Part shown: positions 3,354 to 25,541 of the stretch, in pieces
Numbering within the stretch: the first letter of the stretch is position 1
Layout: each line of letters starts with the position of its first letter
Source of the DNA: an uncultured Planctomycetota bacterium
GTDB taxonomy: Bacteria; Planctomycetota; J058
Reading direction: 5' to 3'
DNA length: 59,460 nt
Assembly: GCA_964569055.1 (NCBI GenBank)
Contig: CAZMSZ010000001.1
Coordinates: 1-59,460 of the forward strand
Notes under the pieces: generated by a model
The model's input: only the letters and a program-made list of their open reading frames with translations
What the model was told of the DNA's origin: nothing
Database searches by the model: none
Program-made: the position numbers and the translations under genes

Positions 3354-3439
3354 CGTTCCGTAACCGAACGGCGCCGGCTTCGAACCGCACACGACCGAGT
3401 ACACAGCAGTTAGGTGCAACGGCAGGTGTCAACTCGTGT

Positions 3440-3455
3440 TGGCACCGACGTTGCA
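3440..3455 (+). promoter_or_regulatory. Sigma-54 (-24/-12) promoter
   Basis: TGGCAC-cgacg-TTGCA matches the TGGCAC-N5-TTGCW consensus exactly. It sits 27 nt upstream of the ATG at 3483, with a purine-rich RBS (GGGAGAGAGAGGGG) in between. Confidence 0.6.
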
Positions 3456-3482
3456 ACGCCCGAGCCGGGAGAGAGAGGGGCC

Positions 3483-4094
3483 ATGCGTCCACAGCACTCG
3501 CATCCGCGCGCTCCGGGAGTCCGCCGTTCGTTTCGAGCGCTGCTGGTGATCGCGGCGCTCACGACCCTCGCGGCCCCGGCGGCCGCCTCCACCGTGCTGC
3601 GGTTCGACCTCGACGACCTCGTCGATCGGGCGGCCGTGATCGTGCACGGCAAGGTGCTCGAGAAGCACTCACGCCGCGGCGAGGACGGGTCGATCGTGAC
3701 CGACCTGCGGGTCGAGGTGACCGACGGGCTCAAGGGCGTCCGCGGCGAGGCCTTCAACTTCACCGTGTTCGGCGGGGTGCTCGGCACGCGCGGCAGCGCG
3801 GTCGCGGGGGCGGCCACCTTCGAGACCGGCGAGGAGATCCTGGTGTTCCTCGGCCGCCCGAACAAGCGCGGCGTGCGGGGCACGATCGGGCTCTCCCAGG
3901 GCAAGTACACCATTCGCGAGGTCGACGGCGAGCGCCTCGCCTTCCGCGACCTCGAGGGGCTCCGGCTGATGGACCGCAGCTCGGGTGAGGTCGAGGAGGC
4001 CAAGACCGAGCAGGGCGTGCCGTTCGACGAGCTGCTCGAGCGCGTGCAGGCCCGGCTGGCCGAGACGCAGCCCGACGCCGAGTCGGGGCGGTAG
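3483..4094 (+). CDS. Secreted hypothetical protein
   Basis: Internal ATG of ORF 3414..4094, placed just after the sigma-54 promoter and RBS. The N-terminus MRPQHSHPRAPGVRRSFRALLVIAALTTLAAPAAAS looks like a signal peptide. The stop is 8 nt before the next gene. Confidence 0.6.
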   Translation: MRPQHSHPRAPGVRRSFRALLVIAALTTLAAPAAASTVLRFDLDDLVDRAAVIVHGKVLEKHSRRGEDGSIVTDLRVEVTDGLKGVRGEAFNFTVFGGVLGTRGSAVAGAATFETGEEILVFLGRPNKRGVRGTIGLSQGKYTIREVDGERLAFRDLEGLRLMDRSSGEVEEAKTEQGVPFDELLERVQARLAETQPDAESGR

Positions 4095-4102
4095 GGGGGG
4101 CC

Positions 4103-5947
4103 ATGGCCGGCACGATCGAGGTCGGGAACTGCCCCGCGCGGCTCGTCTCCCGCAAGTTCATCCACCGCGCGCCGATCATCGCGGTGCTGTTCTGCATGTT
4201 CGGCCTGTCCTACTCCAGCTACGCCTGGGTGAGCCTGCAGGCCGGGTCGAAGGCGTTCTACTGGCGCAACCCCACCGTGGCGTTCGCGATCCACGAGGAG
4301 TGCCACCCCGGGATCGACGACGGCAGCGACATCACCGCGGTCCGGCTCGCCTTCCAGGAGTGGGAGAAGGTGCCCGGCAGCCGGGTCGCGTTCTGGGAGG
4401 ACACCTCGGCGAGCGCGCGCTCGCGCACCGACTGGCGCTCGGACGACGTCAGCCTGGTCCTGTGGGACACGACCAACGAGAGCGGCTTCTTCACGCCCGG
4501 CACGGGCCTGGTCGCGATCACCCCGGTCGACTTCGACACCCGGACCGGCGAGATCCTCGACGCGGACATCCTGTTCAACGGCAGCAAGCCGTTCTCGACC
4601 GACGGCGACGCGGGGTCGTTCGACATCCAGAACATCGCCACCCACGAGGTCGGCCACTTCGTCGGGCTCGACCACTCGGCCGTGGTGGGCGCGACCATGA
4701 ACCCGTTCGCCTACACGCGCGACACGCGGCTGCGCTCGCTCGCGACCGACGACAAGGCGGCCGCCACCACGATCTACCCGGCCGCCGGCGAGCCCGCCTC
4801 GCTGCAGGGCTTCGTGAAGCTCAACGGGACCGCGATCAGCGGCGCCCACGTGGTCGCGGAGGATGAGCAGGGGCGGCCGGCCTCGGCCACGCTGTCGGAC
4901 GGCAACGGCTTCTTCCACATCCGTGGGCTGGAGCCCGGGACCTACGCGGTCTACGCCGAGCCGCTCGACGGCCCGGTCAGCAACGCCAACTTCTCGCTCC
5001 ACACCAGCAACCTGCGGATCGACACCGGGTTCGGCACCACGTTCTGGGGCGCGACCAACGGGCGCAGCCACCCGGCCGAGCCCAGCCGCGTGCAGGTCGG
5101 CTTCGGCCAGCGCGTGGACGTCGGCGAGCTGTCGCTGCTCCCGCAGACCTCGATCAACGTGACCTCCGTCTCGCCCAACGCGCTCACCCCGGGCGCCGAG
5201 CTCGAGCTCGCCGTGGGCGGGGTCGACGTCGGGCGCGGGGCCGACACCAAGTCGGTCGTGATCCCCTCGGCGCTCGGCGACGTGCAGATCCTCGACGCGC
5301 GCTTCCCCAGCGCCAGCCAGGCGCGCGTGCAGGTCTACGTGGCCCCGGCGGCGCGGCCGCAGCTCTGCAGCGTCCGCGTGTTCGACACCCAGACCTGGGC
5401 CTGCTCGGTCTACACCGGCGGGTTCGAGGTGCGCGACCCCGGCCCCGTCGCCGAGGGGCTGTCGACGTCGACCGGCACGCCGGGCAGCTCGGTCTCGGTG
5501 CTGGGTGACCGGTTCCAGTCGGGCGCGCGCGCCCTGCTCGGCCCGGTGGTGGTCTCGGCCACGGTCTCCGGCACCGAGGTCCGGTTCTCTGTGCCCTCGA
5601 CCCTCCCCAACGGGACCTACGACGTGACCGTCGAGAACCCCGACGGCCAGTTCGCCAAGCTGCAGGAAGCCTTCACCGTCAGCGGCTCGACCGCCACGCT
5701 CGCCACCGGCAGCGGCGGGATCGGCTCGCCGCCTCCGCCCCCGCCCACCGCCGGCTCGGCGACCGCGGCGGCGCGCCCCCCCTCGCGGGCGGCCTCGGGC
5801 AGCGACGGCGGCGGCGGTGGCGGCGGCGGCTGCGCCCTCAGCCCCGTCCCGACCGGCAACGGCGGCGCGGACCCGAGCGCGCTGCTGGCGCTGGCCCTCC
5901 TCGGGGCGCTGTTCGCGCGCCGCGGCCGGGTGCAGCCCAGGCGGTGA
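4103..5947 (+). CDS. Matrixin/metzincin zinc metalloprotease with Ig-like (TIG-like) repeats and a MYXO-CTERM-like sorting tail
   Basis: HEVGHFVGLDHS matches the HExxHxxGxxH zinc site. The N-terminus has a hydrophobic anchor. The C-terminus has a poly-Pro/Gly linker followed by GGGGGGGGCALSP...LLALALLGALFARRGR (Gly-Cys, hydrophobic stretch, basic tail). Confidence 0.85.
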   Translation: MAGTIEVGNCPARLVSRKFIHRAPIIAVLFCMFGLSYSSYAWVSLQAGSKAFYWRNPTVAFAIHEECHPGIDDGSDITAVRLAFQEWEKVPGSRVAFWEDTSASARSRTDWRSDDVSLVLWDTTNESGFFTPGTGLVAITPVDFDTRTGEILDADILFNGSKPFSTDGDAGSFDIQNIATHEVGHFVGLDHSAVVGATMNPFAYTRDTRLRSLATDDKAAATTIYPAAGEPASLQGFVKLNGTAISGAHVVAEDEQGRPASATLSDGNGFFHIRGLEPGTYAVYAEPLDGPVSNANFSLHTSNLRIDTGFGTTFWGATNGRSHPAEPSRVQVGFGQRVDVGELSLLPQTSINVTSVSPNALTPGAELELAVGGVDVGRGADTKSVVIPSALGDVQILDARFPSASQARVQVYVAPAARPQLCSVRVFDTQTWACSVYTGGFEVRDPGPVAEGLSTSTGTPGSSVSVLGDRFQSGARALLGPVVVSATVSGTEVRFSVPSTLPNGTYDVTVENPDGQFAKLQEAFTVSGSTATLATGSGGIGSPPPPPPTAGSATAAARPPSRAASGSDGGGGGGGGCALSPVPTGNGGADPSALLALALLGALFARRGRVQPRR

Positions 5948-18441: not shown

Positions 18442-18765
18442 ATGGCCGGCGCGATTCTGAGCGAGGACAGCTTCGTCACCTGCGTCCACGGCGGCGTAGC
18501 CGAGCCGGTGGTTCCCGACCCGATGGTGCTCGTGGGCGGGGCCCCGCTGATCGCCCAGGACTCGCCGTACATCGTCTCGGGCTGCTGCTTCCCGCCGCCT
18601 GTCCTGGCGAACGGGCCGTGCGTGTGCGGCGAGTGGGTGCTGGGCGACGTGACGGTCCTGGCGGGCGGGATCCCGGTCCTCGTGCAGGCTGGCGTCGCGG
18701 TGTGCGAGCTGACGGGGACGGGTCTCCTCCCCGAGGTCTGCGACGAGTTGATCCAGACCGAATGA
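18442..18765 (+). CDS. PAAR-like (DUF4280-like) spike tip protein
   Basis: ATG behind GGAGGAG, 107 aa. Conserved Cys and Gly spacing (FVTCVHGG...VSGCCFPPP...GPCVCGEW...AGVAVCE) is typical of PAAR-like cone proteins. It follows the spike gene directly. Confidence 0.6.
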   Translation: MAGAILSEDSFVTCVHGGVAEPVVPDPMVLVGGAPLIAQDSPYIVSGCCFPPPVLANGPCVCGEWVLGDVTVLAGGIPVLVQAGVAVCELTGTGLLPEVCDELIQTE

Positions 18766-19148
18766 CCGAGCGAGGCCGGACCATGAGTGACGGCGGGCTC
18801 CAGCTCGCGTTTCCCTTCCAGCTCGACCCGCAGGGACGAGTGGCGAGCACCGACTACGCGCAGCACGTGGAGCAGTTGATCCTCCAGCTCCTGTTCACCT
18901 CGCCAGGCGAGCGGGTGAACCGGCCCTCGTTCGGGTGTGGGTTGCTGGCGCGCGTGTTCCAGCCCGACGACTCGGCCGTCGCCTCGGCCGTTCAGGTCCA
19001 GATCGTCGCGGCCCTGCATACGTGGCTGAGCGATGTGCTCGAGCCCCGGGCCGTGGAGGTCACGCTCGACGACGCGCGCCTGACGATCGACATCGTGTAC
19101 GTGATCCTGCGTGACGAGAAGACCTATCGGACGCGGGTGGAGCGCTGA
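18762..19148 (+). CDS. Baseplate wedge protein gp25/GPW-like
   Basis: ATG at 18762 overlaps the previous stop (ATGA); an alternative ATG lies at 18783. VEQLILQLLFTSPGERVNRPSFGCGL is the GPW/gp25 motif. Confidence 0.8.
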   Translation: MTERGRTMSDGGLQLAFPFQLDPQGRVASTDYAQHVEQLILQLLFTSPGERVNRPSFGCGLLARVFQPDDSAVASAVQVQIVAALHTWLSDVLEPRAVEVTLDDARLTIDIVYVILRDEKTYRTRVER

Positions 19149-19155
19149 GCCCGCC

Positions 19156-21573
19156 GTGAGCATCACCGAGCGCGCCCAGCCGCCCCACAGCGAGCTCCCG
19201 GCTCGAGCTGAGCGACGCGCGCTGGTCGCCGCCAGCCCCTCGCTCACCGGTTTGGACTACGTCAGCGTCACGCGCGAGGCGACCCGCTGGAAGGTCACGC
19301 TGCACTTCATCCCGCCGGCGCCCTCGGTGGCGGAGAAGGCAGCAGTGCCCTCGGGATTCGGCCCCCGCTCGCTTCAGCTCCGCCCTCGCGGTGGAGGGCG
19401 GACGGGGCTCGTGGTCGAGGAGCTGACACCGCGCGCGCGGGACGGGCGGGTCGAGCTGCGGGTCGCGCCGGCCCAGCGGGATGCGGCCGCGCTCGTCGAG
19501 CGTGAGACGTACGTCGTCTCGCTCGAAGGCGTACCGGGCGTGGACCCTTGGTTCGCGAGCGCCGAGTTCCGCCTAGACGAGCGCGCGCTCACGCCGGCAG
19601 CCCCCGAGGCCGAGCTCCTGCCGCCCTGGTCGCCTGCCGGGCACTACCTGGCCAAGGACTACGACAGCTTCAGGACGCTGCTGCTCGACCAACTGGCCGC
19701 GACCCTGCCCTCGTGGGCGGAGCGCAACCCGTGTGACATCGGAGTGATGCTGGTCGAGGTCCTCGCGTACCTCGGTGACGCGCTCAGCTACCGGCAGGAC
19801 GCGGTGGCGACCGAAGCCTACCTCGCCACCGCGCGGCTCCGGCCCTCGCTCCGGCGGCATGCCCGTCTCCTGGACTACGTCCTGCATGAGGGGTGCAACG
19901 CCCGGACGTGGATCCATTTGGTCCTCGCCGAGGGCGCCAGCGGCCCCGTGAAGGTCCCGGTGGGGACCGAGCTCGTGGCGGGCTCCAGGGCCGCCGCCAG
20001 CCGTGCGTTCCAGCAGGACGGCGCGGGCAGCGGTCCGCCCGTGTTCGCCACGCTGGAGGACGTCGTCCTCCAGCCCGATCAGCGCCTGATGCAGCTCTAC
20101 ACCTGGGGCGAGCAGGTGTTCTCGCTGCCAGCCGGGGCGACGCGCGCGGCGCTGCGGGGGCGACCGAGCGGGCTGCGCGCCGGTGCCGTCGTCTATCTGC
20201 ACTGCAGCGACGCGAGCGCAGCCGGGAGGGGCCAGTTGGTCCGGCTCGTGGCCGACGCCGAGCCCGACGTCGACCCGTTGCTCGAGCAGCCGATCACCTG
20301 GATCCGCTGGTCCAGCGAGGACGCGCTGGGCGCGGCGCTTCCGGTGAGCCAGCGCGTCGACGGCCGCGTGGTCTCCGACCTGACGGTGGTGCGGGGGAAC
20401 AACGTGCTCGTGGACGCCGGGCGCCGTCGACGCGCGGTAGCCACGCTGGGAGACACGACCGGCGAGCTGACCCTGCCGATCAGCGGGCTCGCCTGGGCGC
20501 AGCCATGGCGCGCGGCGCAGCCTGGGGAGTCGCCGGCCGGGAGCCTCGTGCAGGACCCGCGCCGAGCGCTCCCCCAGATCTGGCTGACGGAGGTGCCGCC
20601 CGAGCCTGCGCCTCATCGAGGCGACCTCCGGCCGCTCCCCGCTCGCTGGGTGCCTCGACTGGACCTGCTGGAGAGTGACCGGGAGGCGCGCCACTTCGTG
20701 GCTGAGCGCGAGGGGACGGCTCAGGTGCGGCTGCGCTTCGGTGACGGCGTCTTCGGGCGCCGGCCGGCCCCGGGGACGCGTTTCGAGGTGACCTATCGCA
20801 CCGTCTCCGGGGAGACGGAGCGCGTGGGCGCCGGCCTGGCCCTCAGCCTCCTCGATCCCGTGGCTGCCGGCCTGGAGGTCGGTGCGGTCGCGCTGGCGAT
20901 GACGTTGGTGCCGAGCTCCGCGGCGGCGGCGCCCGAGGACGAGGAGGAAGGACGCCGCTACCCCCCGGCGATGACGCGGGTGCAGCGACGGTGCGTGACA
21001 GCCGCCGATTGGGCTGCGGCCGCGGAGGAGGTGGACGGGGTCCTCCAAGCGCGGGCCGAGCTGCGCTGGACCGGTGCCTGGTCGACCGCGTTCGTCACGG
21101 TCCTGCGGCAGGGGGGGGCCGAGCTGGACGAACCGCTGCGCCGGCGCCTCGCGGCGACGCTGGCCCCTCGCGCCTTGATGGGCGTCGCGTTCACCTTGCG
21201 CGACGCCGAGGTGGTCCCCGTGGAGATCGAGCTCGAGGTCGACGTACGAGCGGAGGACTGGACGCGTGTCCAGGTGGCCCTCCACGCCGCCTTCTCCTCG
21301 GGTGCCCTCCCCACCGGGCTGCCAGCCTTCTTCGCACCCGACGCGTTCGGCTTCGGGCGCCCCCTCTACCTCAGCCAGGTGATCGCCCGCGCCATGGAGG
21401 TGCCCGGAGTCGCCGACGCCCGTGCCATCACGTTCGCTCCGATCGGCGAGTCCTCGGCTCCCTACCTGCAAGCTGGCAAGATCCCGGCTGGCCCGCTCCA
21501 GGTGATCCGGGTGCTCGGCACACCGGGAGCCCCCGAGGACGGCTTCATCACCTTCCGGCGGAGCTCCGCGTGA
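19156..21573 (+). CDS. Baseplate J-like assembly protein (gp6/Afp11-like)
   Basis: GTG at 19156. DYDSFRTLLLDQLAATLPSWAERNPCDIGVMLVEVLAYLGDALSYRQDAVATEAYLATARLRPSLRRHARLLDY matches the baseplate-J-family N-terminal block. Confidence 0.8.
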   Translation: MSITERAQPPHSELPARAERRALVAASPSLTGLDYVSVTREATRWKVTLHFIPPAPSVAEKAAVPSGFGPRSLQLRPRGGGRTGLVVEELTPRARDGRVELRVAPAQRDAAALVERETYVVSLEGVPGVDPWFASAEFRLDERALTPAAPEAELLPPWSPAGHYLAKDYDSFRTLLLDQLAATLPSWAERNPCDIGVMLVEVLAYLGDALSYRQDAVATEAYLATARLRPSLRRHARLLDYVLHEGCNARTWIHLVLAEGASGPVKVPVGTELVAGSRAAASRAFQQDGAGSGPPVFATLEDVVLQPDQRLMQLYTWGEQVFSLPAGATRAALRGRPSGLRAGAVVYLHCSDASAAGRGQLVRLVADAEPDVDPLLEQPITWIRWSSEDALGAALPVSQRVDGRVVSDLTVVRGNNVLVDAGRRRRAVATLGDTTGELTLPISGLAWAQPWRAAQPGESPAGSLVQDPRRALPQIWLTEVPPEPAPHRGDLRPLPARWVPRLDLLESDREARHFVAEREGTAQVRLRFGDGVFGRRPAPGTRFEVTYRTVSGETERVGAGLALSLLDPVAAGLEVGAVALAMTLVPSSAAAAPEDEEEGRRYPPAMTRVQRRCVTAADWAAAAEEVDGVLQARAELRWTGAWSTAFVTVLRQGGAELDEPLRRRLAATLAPRALMGVAFTLRDAEVVPVEIELEVDVRAEDWTRVQVALHAAFSSGALPTGLPAFFAPDAFGFGRPLYLSQVIARAMEVPGVADARAITFAPIGESSAPYLQAGKIPAGPLQVIRVLGTPGAPEDGFITFRRSSA

Positions 21574-24500
21574 GCGCCGATCAGCCCACCCCCTCGTTCC
21601 CGCCGGGGCAGCCCGCCTTGAGGCATTCGCTCGGCAACTACGAGAGCTTCTTGGCCGAGCTGCTGACCGCGACGCCGCTCGCTCAGTTGCCCGACGGCCC
21701 ATTCGCCGGCACGCGCCCGCTGGCGAGCATGGACCTCAGCGCGGGCGCCGGCTTCGGGCGGGCCTACCTCGAAGCCTGGGCCCGCGTGAGTGACGTGCTG
21801 TCCTTCTATCAAGAGCGCCTGATGAACGAGGGCTACCTGCGGACGGCCGTCCAGGCGTCCTCCGTCCGGCTGTTGCTCGCGTCGCTCGACTACGCGCCCT
21901 TCCCTGCGGTCTCGTCCGAGGTGCTCCTGGCGTTCACCGTCGTCGATCCGAGCGACGGCTCGCCCGTGACGATCCCGCCAGGAACCGCCGTGCAGAGCGT
22001 CCCCAGCGGGGCAGCGGGCCTGCCGCTCACGTTCGAGACCAGCGAGCCCGTCCGGGCGCGGGCCGCGTGGAACGCGCTCGCGGCCTACGTCCCGCCGCCC
22101 GGCCAGCCGCCCTACGTCCCCGTGCCGCCTCCTCCCGCGCCGTCCGGGCCAGCGGGACAGGTCGTGCTGCAGGGCGTGAACCTCGGCCTCAAGCGGGGAG
22201 ACCGGCTGCTGATCCGCAGCGGGGCACTCCCCGACGCGTGGTTCCTGGCCCAGATCGCGGCCGTCGACGCGCGGCCCAAACAATCGCTCACCAGGTTGAC
22301 CTGGACGGTGGAGGCGGGCTCGGTCGGCCCCGGCGAGAAGCTGTCCCAGCCGGAGGCCTACGCGCTCCGCGCTACGACCGGCCTGTTCGGGGCGACGGCG
22401 ACCGACTGGACCCGCCTGTCGCTGGACGCCAAGCTGCAGGCGGGGGCCACGCCCAAGGGCGGTGCCAGGCGGGCGACCGCCGGCGTCGGCGAGATCCCAT
22501 GGCGACCGCGCAAGCCGGACGAGGACTGGACCTCGGCCCAGCGAGGGCTGTCGACCAACGCGTGCTTCGCCTGCGGTGTCGGCGCCGCCGTGTTCGTCGG
22601 CAGTCTCGACCGCGGCCTGTTCGTGTCCCGAGACGGCGCGCGCACCTGGAGCAGCGCTGGGGTGGGGATCGGCAACAAGCCCGTCCTGTGTCTGGCGCAC
22701 CATCCCGAGGTGGGGCTGGTCGTCGGGTCCACGGCTGGCGGTGTGTTCCGCTCCACGGACGGCGCGAGCACTTGGCAGCGCATCAGCGGAGGCAGCGTCC
22801 AGCTCAAGGAGATCCCCGGCCGAGCCACCAAGGCGCCTCCCGGGAGCGCGACCGGCGCCCCCTCGTCCTCTCCGACACCCTCCTATCGGGCCCAGATCAC
22901 CCGCCTTCCCCTGAGCGCCGTGCGCTCGCTCGCGATCGTCGACACCCCGCTCGACCCGAATGGGGGCCGGGTCCCGACGCTGTGGGCGGGCACGGACGCG
23001 GGGGTCTACGTCAGCGAGGACCTCGGCGCCACCTGGGCCCCCATGAGCGACGGGCTCCCGACGGCCGGCAGCGGCGGGTCTTCGCCGACCGACGACACGC
23101 GGACCGCGAGCGTCAGCGTGAAGGCGTTCGCGCTGCAGCCGGTGGAGTTGGGCGGGCTCCGGCTGTTCGCGGGCACCTCGGGCGGGCTCTACTCGTGCGC
23201 GGTGCCAAACCTGCACGCGCGGCCGCAGTGGGCGCCCGCCGGTCCGCCGGGCCTCGCCGTGAACGCGCTGCTGTGCACCGGCGACGGCACGGTCCTGGCG
23301 GGGACGAGCGGCGGGATCTGGGTCTATCCGCCGACGGCCGACGCGCCGACCGGGACCCCCCGGCTGGTCGGCCGCGCGGTGCGGGCGCTCGCTTCGATCG
23401 ACATCGCCCAGGACGGCGAGGACGAGGCGTCGCCGCGGATCGAGCGGGTGTTCGCCGCCACCGATGTCGGGCTCTACTACTCCGACGAGCTCGATCGTGA
23501 CCCGTGGCATGCGATCCCGGTGCCTCACACCACGGAGCTCGTGGCGGTCGCGACCGCCAGCCCCGACGTCCTGCTGTGCGCGGGGCCGCTGGAAGGTGTG
23601 ATCGAGTCGGAGTGGCCGGGGTTCCACATCCCCGAGCCCGTGTCCGGGCAGGCGACGATCGACCTCGACCGCGTGGTCACCACGGTCCAGCCGTACGGCT
23701 GGGCCGTGCTGTTGCCCGGTACGCCGCCCCCGCCTCCGGGGATCACCGCGACCGTGCCACCGCGGCCCGCGCCCAAGCTCGTGACGCCCCCGTCCGCGAA
23801 CTCGTACTCCGTCGCGCAGACGACGACCGCCGCTCCGATGCGGTTCGGACTGCTCGGGAGCGTCACGCGCCTGACGGTCACCGGCTCGACAGACGCGCTG
23901 GGTGATCTGCACCTCTACGACCTGCGCTCGACGCTGGCGCTGGTGGCGAGCGAACGGCTGTCGCTGAGCTCGACCACGCTCGCCTTGTCCGCCGCGTCCG
24001 CGAGCAGAGCCGGGCCGACGTCGCCGTTCTGCGCGACATTCGGGGCGTCGGCGCTGGTGTTCGGTGACACGCTCGACCTCGTGGCGGGGGCCGCTGGGCT
24101 CGAGGCGGGCCGGACCCTGCTGGTCGGCGGTCGGCCCATCCGGCTCCTGGTAGACGGGTCTTGGGCGAACGTGACCGGCGCGCGCGTGCTCGCCTCGGGG
24201 GTGACGGTGGTGGTGTGCGAGGGCGACGGAGGTCGACTCACCTCCCAGCGAGACGTCGAGCCGGACGCTGTCTTCGCGGCCCAGGACCCGTCCGGCCCGC
24301 TGACGTACGAGGCCGTGAGCGTGGCTGGGCTCGAGTTGCTGGCCGACCGCGTCCGCGTGAGGCTCGCGCCGCCGGGGCTGATGGGGGTCTACGATGCGGC
24401 GAGCGTGGTGGCCTACGGGAACGTGGCGCTGGCGAGCGAGGGTCAGACGCACCCCACGTCGAACGCTGGCAACCAGCTTCCGGGCTCGGGGGAGGTGCTC

Positions 24501-25541
24501 GGAAGCGGCGACCGCTCCAAGCGGTTCCAGCAGTTCGCGCCCGCCTTCCAGCCCCTCAGCTACGTGCGCGACCCCGTGACGGGTGAGATCGGCCCCGCGC
24601 TCCGCGTCCGCGTGGACGACGTGGAGTGGTCCGAGACGCCGGCCTTGCCGCTGGCGGGACCGGACGACCGGGTCTATGCGGTGCGCCCGGGTGCGTCGAG
24701 CATCACGATCGAGTTCGGGGACGGGCGACACGGCGCGCGCCTCCCGAGCGGAGTGAACAACGTCACCGCCACCTACCGCGCCGGTTCGGGCGCGGCCGGG
24801 AACGCGCCTGCTGGTGCGATCAAGATCCTGCCCGGCGCGGGGGTCACGCTCTCGCAGGTCGTCAACCCGCTCCCAGCCCAAGGCGGCGTCGACCCGCAGC
24901 CTCTCGCCGTCGCCCGCTCCGCAGGCCCGATTCGTTCGCGCCCGCTCGGGCGCGTGGTCTCGATCGCCGACCTGGTCGACTTCGTGCAGACCTACCCGGG
25001 GGTGGGGAAGGCCGCGACCTTCGAGGTCGCGACGCCCCGCGGCAAGCTGCGCGTGCTGACCATCGCCGGCGACGACCAGCGCCCCCTCCCGCCAGGCGCG
25101 CCGCTTCGCGAGCTGATGACCCGGGCGATCGCCGCGGCCAGCGCTCCCGACTCGGACCTGGCGCAGGGCGTCCAGCTCGCCACCTACACGCCGCGCACGT
25201 TCGTGGTCGGCGCGCGGCTGACCCTCGCGCCGGGCGCGGCCGAGCAGCCCACGCTCGCCTCCGCCGCCCAGGCGCTGCGAGCGCGCTTCTCGTTCGAGCG
25301 GCGCCAGTTCGCCCAGCCGGTGACGGCCGCCGAGGTCGTGACGGCCCTGCAGGAGGTGCGGGGCGTGGTGGCCGTGCGGCTGACCGCGCTGGCCCTCACC
25401 CGGGTCCTCTCGGGGGAGCAGCCGGCCTCGGTCCTGCCGGCGGCAGCCCCGAGCTGGACGGAGGGCGCGCTCAGGTCGGCGGAGCTCCTGCTGCTCGGAC
25501 CGGACGAGGCGAGCGTGCGGCTCGTGGCAGGTGCGGTGTGA
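21570..25541 (+). CDS. Large baseplate protein (baseplate-J-like, gp7/Afp12 position) with an inserted Asp-box/BNR-like beta-propeller
   Basis: GTG at 21570 (GTGA overlap). The N-terminal block is NYESFLAELL...YLEAWARVSDVLSFYQERLMNEGYLRTA. The C-terminal block is GNVALASEGQT...LGSGDRSKRFQQF...VRVDDVEWSE...DRVYAV...FGDGRHGARLPSG..NVTATYRAGSGAAGN. The middle carries repeats such as FVSRDGARTW, FRSTDGASTW and YVSEDLGATW. Confidence 0.8.
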   Translation: MSADQPTPSFPPGQPALRHSLGNYESFLAELLTATPLAQLPDGPFAGTRPLASMDLSAGAGFGRAYLEAWARVSDVLSFYQERLMNEGYLRTAVQASSVRLLLASLDYAPFPAVSSEVLLAFTVVDPSDGSPVTIPPGTAVQSVPSGAAGLPLTFETSEPVRARAAWNALAAYVPPPGQPPYVPVPPPPAPSGPAGQVVLQGVNLGLKRGDRLLIRSGALPDAWFLAQIAAVDARPKQSLTRLTWTVEAGSVGPGEKLSQPEAYALRATTGLFGATATDWTRLSLDAKLQAGATPKGGARRATAGVGEIPWRPRKPDEDWTSAQRGLSTNACFACGVGAAVFVGSLDRGLFVSRDGARTWSSAGVGIGNKPVLCLAHHPEVGLVVGSTAGGVFRSTDGASTWQRISGGSVQLKEIPGRATKAPPGSATGAPSSSPTPSYRAQITRLPLSAVRSLAIVDTPLDPNGGRVPTLWAGTDAGVYVSEDLGATWAPMSDGLPTAGSGGSSPTDDTRTASVSVKAFALQPVELGGLRLFAGTSGGLYSCAVPNLHARPQWAPAGPPGLAVNALLCTGDGTVLAGTSGGIWVYPPTADAPTGTPRLVGRAVRALASIDIAQDGEDEASPRIERVFAATDVGLYYSDELDRDPWHAIPVPHTTELVAVATASPDVLLCAGPLEGVIESEWPGFHIPEPVSGQATIDLDRVVTTVQPYGWAVLLPGTPPPPPGITATVPPRPAPKLVTPPSANSYSVAQTTTAAPMRFGLLGSVTRLTVTGSTDALGDLHLYDLRSTLALVASERLSLSSTTLALSAASASRAGPTSPFCATFGASALVFGDTLDLVAGAAGLEAGRTLLVGGRPIRLLVDGSWANVTGARVLASGVTVVVCEGDGGRLTSQRDVEPDAVFAAQDPSGPLTYEAVSVAGLELLADRVRVRLAPPGLMGVYDAASVVAYGNVALASEGQTHPTSNAGNQLPGSGEVLGSGDRSKRFQQFAPAFQPLSYVRDPVTGEIGPALRVRVDDVEWSETPALPLAGPDDRVYAVRPGASSITIEFGDGRHGARLPSGVNNVTATYRAGSGAAGNAPAGAIKILPGAGVTLSQVVNPLPAQGGVDPQPLAVARSAGPIRSRPLGRVVSIADLVDFVQTYPGVGKAATFEVATPRGKLRVLTIAGDDQRPLPPGAPLRELMTRAIAAASAPDSDLAQGVQLATYTPRTFVVGARLTLAPGAAEQPTLASAAQALRARFSFERRQFAQPVTAAEVVTALQEVRGVVAVRLTALALTRVLSGEQPASVLPAAAPSWTEGALRSAELLLLGPDEASVRLVAGAV

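Follow-up and report, generated by a model that had tools for sequence, protein, structure and literature searches.

A predicted BNR-type beta-propeller inserted into a baseplate-J-type wedge protein of a contractile injection system from Planctomycetota

Described wedge proteins and the protein compared

Grafted domains on the baseplate wedge proteins of contractile injection systems (CISs) are already known from the thylakoid-anchored system of Anabaena (tCIS) and from AlgoCIS. The case considered here is P0001, a 1323-residue protein of an uncultured Planctomycetota bacterium, which is encoded at positions 21,570..25,541 of the 59,460-bp stretch of DNA analysed (the window; contig CAZMSZ010000001.1) and carries a predicted seven-bladed BNR-type beta-propeller between two conserved cores. 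This gene and all other features given below are on the + strand, unless stated otherwise. The only solved structure matched by sequence is Cis11 of the Streptomyces coelicolor CIS (CIS-Sc; 9GTP chain 1K), which shares with P0001 the baseplate-J C-terminal core and the gene position after gp25. The CIS-Sc wedge is reported to be composed of two Cis11 and one Cis12, with Cis11 being peripheral and surface-exposed (PMC12237407), and the same arrangement of two J-type positions and one third protein is predicted for the lineage of P0001. However, S. coelicolor Cis11 has only 652 residues and no inserted domain, both J positions of CIS-Sc are filled with identical copies whereas the lineage of P0001 would use two diverged paralogues, and CIS-Sc is cytoplasmic and fibreless, while the P0001 locus encodes a protein at the fibre position.

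The extra domains that Cis11 and Cis12 carry in the tCIS of Anabaena and the cage formed by Cis11 of AlgoCIS follow the same principle as P0001, being lineage-specific grafts that reach beyond the core particle, and the authors of the tCIS study consider baseplate components as hotspots of evolutionary re-engineering (PMC8894136). Those extensions serve, however, as a thylakoid anchor or a cage, and none of them is described as a BNR propeller, a PA14 domain or a lectin. Identity of the P0001 family with tCIS Cis12 was considered and rejected, as the homologue from Anabaena azotica has no match to the tCIS chains. A propeller lectin as presumed binding module in a Tail_P2_I-type extracellular CIS (eCIS), which P0001 would resemble, is known from tail fibres of the eBAP3 group, but there the propellers belong to a fibre gene downstream of the baseplate genes (PMC12923769), while that of P0001 is on a wedge protein and would represent a binding module on a non-fibre protein.

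By matches in both cores (for gp6 obtained with a profile) P0001 falls into the superfamily of T4 gp6, P2 gpJ and TssF of the type VI secretion system, whose members have no propeller. In T4 receptor-related modules are placed on separate proteins, gp7, gp10, gp11 and gp12. The same logic of grafting is used by “evolved” Dit and Tal baseplate proteins of siphophages infecting Gram-positive bacteria, where inserted carbohydrate-binding modules supplement the dedicated receptor-binding protein, but protein family, fold and machine are different, the tail in the case of Dit/Tal being non-contractile.

The propeller, its insertion site and conservation

Judged from its sequence, P0001 belongs to a tandem pair of gp6/baseplate-J (Cis11-type) paralogues of a chromosomal CIS, of which it is the second and may be called “Cis11b”. 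Its GTG start overlaps the upstream stop codon (GTGA at 21,570), the gene on the 3′ side begins within another GTGA at 25,538, and the plot of G+C content at third codon positions (GC3) agrees with this and other reading frames called in the locus. TIGR02243 (“putative baseplate assembly protein”) matches the N- and C-terminal blocks with E 4.7e-44 and 151.0 bits, just below the equivalog cut-off of 155.8 because the insert splits the match. The chain 9gtp_1K, “Baseplate protein J-like”, is matched by the single sequence of P0001 with E 2.6e-7, and a profile of insert-less homologues matches this chain (4.9e-15), T4 gp6 (2.7e-4) and Baseplate J “triplex” (3.5e-3). 9GTP is the CIS baseplate of S. 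coelicolor and contains chain 1K 12 times, which fits Cis11. Pfam gave no match to the whole P0001 at E≤0.01, Baseplate_J, Tail_P2_I and PF14870 included.

The conserved N-terminal core (N-core; residues 1–280, 21,570..22,409) aligns to residues ~12–300 of insert-less homologues, contains the invariant LSFYQERL (residues 77–84), around the FYQER motif of which residues 75–156 of T4 gp6 are matched by the family profile, and closes with LFGATATDW (272–280). The C-terminal baseplate-J core (C-core; residues ~945–1323, 24,402..25,538) is defined by TIGR02243 positions 352–656 aligned with residues 974–1272, by residues 318–479 of 9gtp_1K aligned with residues 1003–1154, and by Pfam Baseplate_J, which matches homologues P0005, P0008, P0016, P0028 and P0114 across the aligned C-core; in the family profile this core also matches gp6 and other Baseplate_J chains. 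Thus, the normal baseplate-J-type terminal blocks noticed in the original prediction, made from the sequence alone, were confirmed by TIGR02243, 9gtp_1K and T4 gp6, while the comparison with gp7/Afp12-type proteins proposed there was wrong: P0001 is of gp6/Cis11/baseplate-J type, has no match to Tail_P2_I, and the gpI-like protein is encoded by the next gene. The operon position, after gp25 and before the gpI-like and fibre genes of a contractile-tail cluster, is the one shared with such proteins.

The inserted region (“site A”, residues 281–680, 22,410..23,609) is composed of a linker of ~40 residues and the seven-bladed propeller. It was mapped with three short anchor-block hidden Markov models (HMMs), one for the N-core end (…LFGxNAxxW), one for the block “WPxF…(V/I)DLD” and one for the beginning of the C-core, according to which P0001 has a gap of 401 aa at site A (residues 279–680) versus a family median of 35 aa. 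Minimal homologues P0003, P0014, P0016 and P0027 (840–930 aa) align to residues ~12–288 and resume at ~680–740; since they join both cores directly, the propeller is an insertion. The return into the core is marked by EWPGFH (681–686) and IDLDRVV (697–703; 23,610..23,678), which are kept in homologues with and without the insert (consensus WPxF...VDLD). Mapping by hmmalign to the insert-less profile was discarded, as the 474-aa insertion was wrongly assigned in its entirety to state 446; long insertions cost less at places where indels already occur in the training set. An insert of ~350 residues had been expected, at positions 22,540–23,600, which correspond to residues 324–677; alignment with homologues lacking it confirmed the insert itself, with the two cores continuous in all four minimal proteins, but its length turned out to be ~400 residues, between LFGATATDW and EWPGFH.

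Exactly three canonical S-x-D-x-G-x-T-W Asp-boxes are present in P0001. SRDGARTW (residues 353–360, 22,626..22,649) lies in the strand 3–4 hairpin of blade 1 and is conserved in homologues, STDGASTW (395–402, 22,752..22,775) was found in blade 2 by motif search, model and alignment, and SEDLGATW (482–489, 23,013..23,036) belongs to blade 3, with D, G and W being invariant in the subfamily. These repeats are far beyond chance: 20,000 shuffles of P0001 gave on average 0.036 matches, and at least three of them were obtained with the probability of 5e-5. Four further blades have no Asp-box but keep the strand pattern “xxAGTxxG-hydrophobic”; their degenerate sequences are GGLYSCAV (538–545), GGIWVYPP (581–588), GLYYSDELDRDPW (634–646) and, in the seventh blade, VLLCAGPLEGV (~659–677). 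The first three of them had been recognized from the beginning and are present as quoted, whereas the assumed number of at least six Asp-box repeats has to be reduced to three canonical ones in a total of seven blades.

Since the repeats are too diverged for Pfam, they were assessed by NCBIfam, phmmer and structure prediction. On the excised domain Pfam gave only a sub-threshold match to Sortilin-Vps10 (PF15902, profile positions 3–61, 14.6 bits versus a cut-off of 33), while homologues match Pfam BNR, BNR_6, Sortilin-Vps10 and PSII_BNR. NCBIfam F510_1955 (NF045728, BNR family) matches residues 347–409 with E 1.3e-13, a match of only two Asp-box blades with 50.8 bits versus a cut-off of 175. 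In a phmmer search with the excised 410 residues against 1.84 billion representatives 19,727 hits were registered at E≤1e-3 and 5,127 at E≤1e-10, most of them being multi-stretch repeat matches.

The AlphaFold2 model (m9febe9deef32), obtained with a 10-sequence alignment including P0114, has a mean local confidence score (pLDDT) of 75.5 and a global one (pTM) of 0.78 and superseded the first model, for which a 6-sequence alignment was used (pLDDT 61, blades 5–7 below 50). Seven blades of four strands each, as assigned by DSSP, occupy residues ~330–677 (22,557..23,600), and the Asp-boxes fall in the strand 3–4 hairpins of blades 1–3, as in known BNR propellers. Foldseek found 771 matches in the PDB at E≤1e-3, and the best 50 of these 771 are all propellers. 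The top neighbours are the periplasmic, heparin/glycan-sensing domains of BT4663/BT4673, halves of glycoside hydrolase family 74 (GH74) enzymes, the BNR protein Reut_B4987 (3b7f) and WD40 proteins; Ycf48 (5ojp) was among the top matches of the first model. In BFVD the neighbours include “BNR repeat” proteins and phage proteins bearing intramolecular-chaperone domains of the tailspike type, and a phage “beta-1,4-xyloglucan hydrolase” is also among them. Thus, the expectation of a BNR/Asp-box-type propeller within a baseplate-J-type protein agrees with the Asp-boxes, with the model and with the search for structural neighbours, which returned propellers.

A conserved beta-hairpin arm is modelled between blades 2 and 3 (22,788..22,904; model strands 90–98 and 121–128) and ends near a conserved “TRLP”, where L and P of the RLP motif are invariant in 10 homologues. 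At the tip of this arm there is a Pro/Ser/Ala/Gly-rich loop PGRATKAPPGSATGAPSSSPTPS (residues 416–437, 22,815–22,880), disordered and of low confidence in the model; homologues differ strongly in the length of this loop, which could be either a flexible contact loop or a plain low-complexity expansion of high-GC DNA.

With BT4663/BT4673 (4A2M, 3OTT), Ycf48 (5OJP), Reut_B4987 (3B7F) and GH74 halves (7KN8) the domain of P0001 shares the fold and Asp-box hairpins (Foldseek probability 1.00, query-normalised TM-score ~0.5, sequence identity 12–17%), but these propellers are free-standing or tandem, whereas that of P0001 is a single one within a loop of a structural protein, with no catalytic residues conserved. 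When the 10 propeller sequences are aligned, the columns without variation contain G, L, W, P, D (of the Asp-box), T and A, but no R, E, Y or non-Asp-box D, and a search for the (F)RIP motif in P0001 found none. Having seven blades in a single copy, no FRIP and no invariant Arg/Glu/Tyr, the domain is neither a sialidase nor a GH74 enzyme nor a sortilin domain with its 10 blades, so that from the “sialidase/sortilin/Ycf48-type” signature suggested earlier only the BNR/Asp-box fold can be retained. GH33 sialidase was rejected by the number of blades (seven, not six) and the lack of RIP and of invariant R/E/Y, of which sialidases have an Arg triad and a Tyr/Glu nucleophile pair; GH74 xyloglucanase by the presence at site A of one propeller, not of a tandem seven-bladed pair forming the catalytic cleft with two Asp residues, and by the ordinary length of region B (see below); the Sortilin/Vps10 domain by seven blades, not ten, and the low PF15902 score; and Ycf48/HCF136 by the absence of a PF14870 match, similarity being limited to the fold (5ojp) and the context being a CIS, not photosystem II.

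A close orthologue of P0001 was sought in 40 related genomes, ranging from those of its genus to others of its family, order, class or phylum, and none was found; the only match there was a different J-type gene of ~1030–1050 aa (E ~1e-13). For this reason the CIS locus is considered as sporadic, and conservation was judged on distant homologues, which are present in Myxococcota, Acidobacteriota, Cyanobacteria, Chloroflexota, Verrucomicrobiota, Proteobacteria and some archaea. In P0114, the closest homologue (37% identity), Asp-boxes are retained by the same blades, and tryptophan recurs once per blade in the 10-sequence alignment of the domain. P0001 and P0114 are 37–40% identical over the N-core and the propeller, and 34% identical over the C-core. 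On the FastTree phylogeny, constructed from core columns only, the distribution of 26 propeller-bearers (Myxococcota, Acidobacteriota, Cyanobacteria) requires 2 changes, a number that falls to 1 when enforcement is limited to well-supported branches, versus a mean of 24.3 for shuffled labels, while PA14 requires 4–6 changes on the same tree. P0001 groups with P0114 and a protein from a metagenome-assembled genome of Polyangiaceae (support 100) within a 15-member clade composed entirely of propeller-bearers (support 98). The repeats are thus conserved in the orthologous clade, and the propeller is an old, vertically kept feature of the subfamily, with the site as a whole re-used several times.

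A second, different J-type baseplate gene with an open frame of 1095 aa was noticed in the same genome (contig C180:6606–7079, − strand). Family-level relatives (G002–G010) have that other J-type gene (~1030–1050 aa) and not the locus of the window, and the CIS of the window therefore looks horizontally acquired or sporadically retained.

Site A is at least 100 aa long in 59 of 145 anchored family members. Clustering of these inserts gave 27 BNR-type propellers (301–857 aa; an inflated count, see below), 11 PA14 domains (138–179 aa), a cluster of 7 members including Streptomyces proteins, 3 members of ~510 aa and singletons. A Pfam tally, made for 64 segments between the N- and C-cores under a looser definition that includes region B (see below), registered PA14 and Sortilin-Vps10 in 9 segments each, Reg_prop in 8, BNR in 7, DUF346 in 3, and fungal fucose lectin and WD40 in 2 each. 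P0028 has PA14 at residues 354–483, exactly between the cores, and P0033 has a RicinB lectin at 215–290. PA14, RicinB and lectin-like propellers are typical extracellular binding modules, and across the family the loop at site A is a hotspot of insertion that looks like a common display site for foreign modules.

Region B, located between the WPxF/IDLD block and the C-core, usually has ~150 aa but reaches 350–1420 aa in 17 of 145 members (L080, P0098 and P0161 are examples), and some family proteins are as long as 2500–2950 aa. In the Anabaena azotica protein (L080:5962–10674) this region holds more propeller blades past a conserved “G(R/K)xLxVSGxxxR” motif. In P0001 it is of ordinary length (180 aa versus a median of 148). 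One of the 64 between-core segments (loci L015–L094) matches Pfam Ntox33 (bacterial toxin 33) with E 2.1e-8 and would represent a toxin domain lying within a wedge protein of the baseplate.

Genes of the surrounding locus

The window belongs to chromosomal DNA with 74% G+C from a 7.76-Mb assembly of 625 contigs. Pfam and NCBIfam scans revealed in it a complete CIS locus (~6.9–36 kb), considered as chromosomal because genes for RNase III, Mfd and a Ser/Thr kinase flank it. It begins with the sheath, a gp19-type tube protein, a T4_baseplate-like protein and a long low-complexity open reading frame (ORF), continues with a Pvc16_N cap protein, a CIS_tube protein, a VgrG OB-fold spike and gp25, then with two TIGR02243 proteins (820 and 1323 aa) and a 688-aa protein, and ends with a 1155-aa DUF6519/Laminin_G_3/Kelch protein, two small ORFs and an AAA+ ATPase.

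Directly 5′ of both J-like genes there is a gene for the gp25-like wedge protein/sheath initiator (18,762..19,148, putative start; Pfam GPW_gp25, E 1.3e-14). The first baseplate-J/gp6-type paralogue (“Cis11a”, 820 aa, 19,111..21,573) matches TIGR02243 over the cut-off (E 5.6e-51) and shows only weak similarity to P0001, across the FYQER region; its homologues of ~800 aa hold the same operon position in loci L013 and L014. The gene on the 3′ side of P0001 (25,538..27,604) encodes a P2 gpI-like third wedge protein of 688 aa, likely the component of the Cis12/gp7 position, which is homologous end to end to an L014 protein carrying Pfam Tail_P2_I (29% identity, E 6e-66). For the two wedge proteins neighbouring P0001 sequence searches of the PDB gave no match. 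The next gene (27,618..31,085) codes for the fibre-position protein of 1155 aa with DUF6519 (Pfam E 1.4e-29), a Kelch propeller (Kelch_1, E 2.2e-19) and a LamG-like domain (Laminin_G_3, E 3e-8). In essentially all of 80 related genomic loci the gpI-like gene immediately follows the J-like gene, in nearly all of them the gene for the DUF6519 protein comes next, and the same order was found in two metagenomic loci with propeller-bearing homologues. Within the fibre-position protein the DUF6519 core (residues ~574–767) is syntenic in most of the 80 loci, while the Kelch end is common only to the closest propeller-bearing loci (L013, L015, L017–L019), and DUF6519 may be the part by which the “fibre” of this lineage attaches to the baseplate.

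A scan of the CIS structural genes revealed no transmembrane segment, no transmembrane adaptor and no CisA-like gene; the only hydrophobic segment was registered outside this block, in a 226-aa ORF at 3414–4094. This protein, with its hydrophobic segment at residues 40–62, is encoded upstream of the sheath gene in the region 3414–5947, together with a 614-aa matrixin (Peptidase_M10) having a CarboxypepD_reg domain and a signal-like N-terminus. The connection of both with the CIS is uncertain, because the gene of RNase III stands between them and the sheath gene. Directly downstream of the CIS locus (36,571–38,700, − strand) a 709-aa protein with GNAT acetyltransferase, SET methyltransferase and Rubisco-LSMT substrate-binding domains is encoded; this architecture is unusual, of the eukaryote-like type modifying chromatin or protein lysines, and the protein could be a candidate effector.

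Possible function of the propeller

The reading we prefer, with a probability of about 0.55, is that the propeller is a non-catalytic surface-exposed ligand-binding module on the second Cis11-type wedge paralogue. In this case the baseplate itself, and not only the fibre, probably helps the machine to grip its target, since relatives carry other sugar- or surface-binding modules at the site of the propeller. A displayed ligand-binding module is the best reading because the site is shared with PA14 domains and lectin-type modules occur in the same variable stretch of homologues. It is also favoured by the peripheral and surface-exposed position reported for Cis11 of CIS-Sc (PMC12237407). Another argument is given by the adjacent N- and C-termini of propellers, which suit insertion into a loop.

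The wedge is most likely a heterotrimer of the first J paralogue, the propeller-bearing second one and the gpI-like protein, which would make it a heterotrimeric version of (gp6)2-gp7, (TssF)2-TssG and (Cis11)2-Cis12. Six such wedges would surround the VgrG spike, so that the propeller would be displayed on the baseplate periphery in six copies per particle. Being exposed there, it could bind a glycan or a protein on the surface under attack, adding avidity and orientation to the action of the LamG/Kelch fibre-position protein, and it may help to pass the “bound” signal to the wedge, thereby triggering contraction.

Several points weigh against this proposal. CIS-Sc, the only solved relative, acts in the cytoplasm and docks to a membrane protein via Cis11 (PMC12237407), and the baseplate extensions of Anabaena tCIS anchor the particle to the producer's own membrane (PMC8894136), so that an inward-looking role is a real alternative. 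The ligands of BNR propellers such as Ycf48 are proteins and not sugars. Moreover, blades 5–7 are modelled at lower confidence, and the counts of propeller-bearers are inflated, as the search that yielded some of the homologues relied on their resemblance to the propeller; a whole-length homologue search gave about six homologues with a propeller at site A.

The main rival explanation is therefore that the propeller docks the injector to a protein or envelope of the producer cell, in the mode of tCIS or CIS-Sc/CisA, and not to the target. In line with it, an extra domain of a tCIS wedge protein is the connector to the thylakoid membrane (PMC8894136), and for the peripheral Cis11 of S. coelicolor, which alone among the relatives of P0001 has a solved structure, the membrane protein CisA is predicted as partner (PMC12237407). 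Haloarchaeal Cis11 also contacts the membrane in a system that has two cis11 genes, and Ycf48, found among fold matches of the first model, represents BNR propellers that are protein-binding assembly factors. We nevertheless consider such docking unlikely. PA14 at the same site, as well as RicinB and fucose-lectin-like propellers in the variable stretch, typically bind carbohydrates outside the cell, the locus retains a LamG/Kelch fibre-position protein along with a cap/ATPase set typical of released eCISs, and the Anabaena azotica homologue has no sequence match to the tCIS structure; the lack of transmembrane segments in the scanned structural genes and of a CisA-like gene is also relevant, but this evidence is weak.

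Other explanations seem less likely. A purely architectural propeller, serving as a cage, an inter-wedge brace or a platform for docking of the DUF6519/Kelch protein, with no external ligand, would resemble the Cis11 extensions of AlgoCIS and tCIS, which cage the spike or stabilise contacts of Cis12 (PMC8894136, PMC12237407), and could account for vertical inheritance of the domain with a divergence about equal to that of the cores (37–40% versus 34%), as well as for the co-occurrence of the Kelch C-terminus of the fibre-position protein with the closest propeller-bearing loci. A brace, however, is not expected to be swapped with PA14 and unrelated inserts or to vanish, as it does in the minimal homologues with a gap of ~35 aa and the same synteny, and the co-occurrence with Kelch may just reflect relatedness of these loci, which makes this role rather improbable. 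Quite improbable is a glycoside hydrolase (sialidase, GH74 or F510_1955-like) clearing surface polysaccharide ahead of the spike, as phage depolymerases do. It is the name of the best NCBIfam match, “F510_1955 family glycosylhydrolase”, that suggests enzymatic activity, together with GH74 xyloglucanases and the “putative glycosyl hydrolase with BNR repeats” (3b7f) among the fold neighbours and the phage xyloglucan hydrolase in BFVD, but this match is limited to two blades and far below its cut-off, neither the FRIP/RIP motif nor a six-bladed or tandem arrangement is present, and 10 homologues have no invariant Asp/Glu/Arg/Tyr outside the Asp-boxes.

A broader suggestion can be made, which we hold only tentatively: in this widespread CIS lineage of Tail_P2_I type the second J paralogue might be a dedicated “adaptor-display” subunit, with one loop past the N-core carrying interchangeable receptor-binding modules (a BNR propeller, PA14, other inserts or multi-propeller arrays of up to ~860 residues), so that the baseplate would set, or co-set, the target surfaces independently of the fibre-position protein. 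While grafting as such has precedents, what is new is that one defined splice site, in the specialised second paralogue of gp6 type, accommodates a conserved BNR-type propeller in this case and PA14 or other modules in other cases. The 2026 catalogue of eCIS receptor-binding domains deals with fibre genes only and in its full text has neither BNR domains nor Baseplate_J inserts (PMC12923769), and full-text searches of the literature gave no description of PA14 or propellers in the baseplate-J proteins of CISs.

The choice of target by fibre-poor or unconventional CISs is largely unexplained. A conserved propeller displayed on the wedge with six-fold symmetry, together with PA14 at the same splice site, would point to a second, overlooked place possibly encoding recognition or docking, for which the exact domain boundaries (residues ~281–680) are now available. 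The locus also documents a lineage with two gp6-type wedge positions presumably filled by specialised paralogues, and not by two copies of one protein. If the adaptor-display suggestion is true, a class of receptor-binding domains would be missing from the current catalogues of eCISs.

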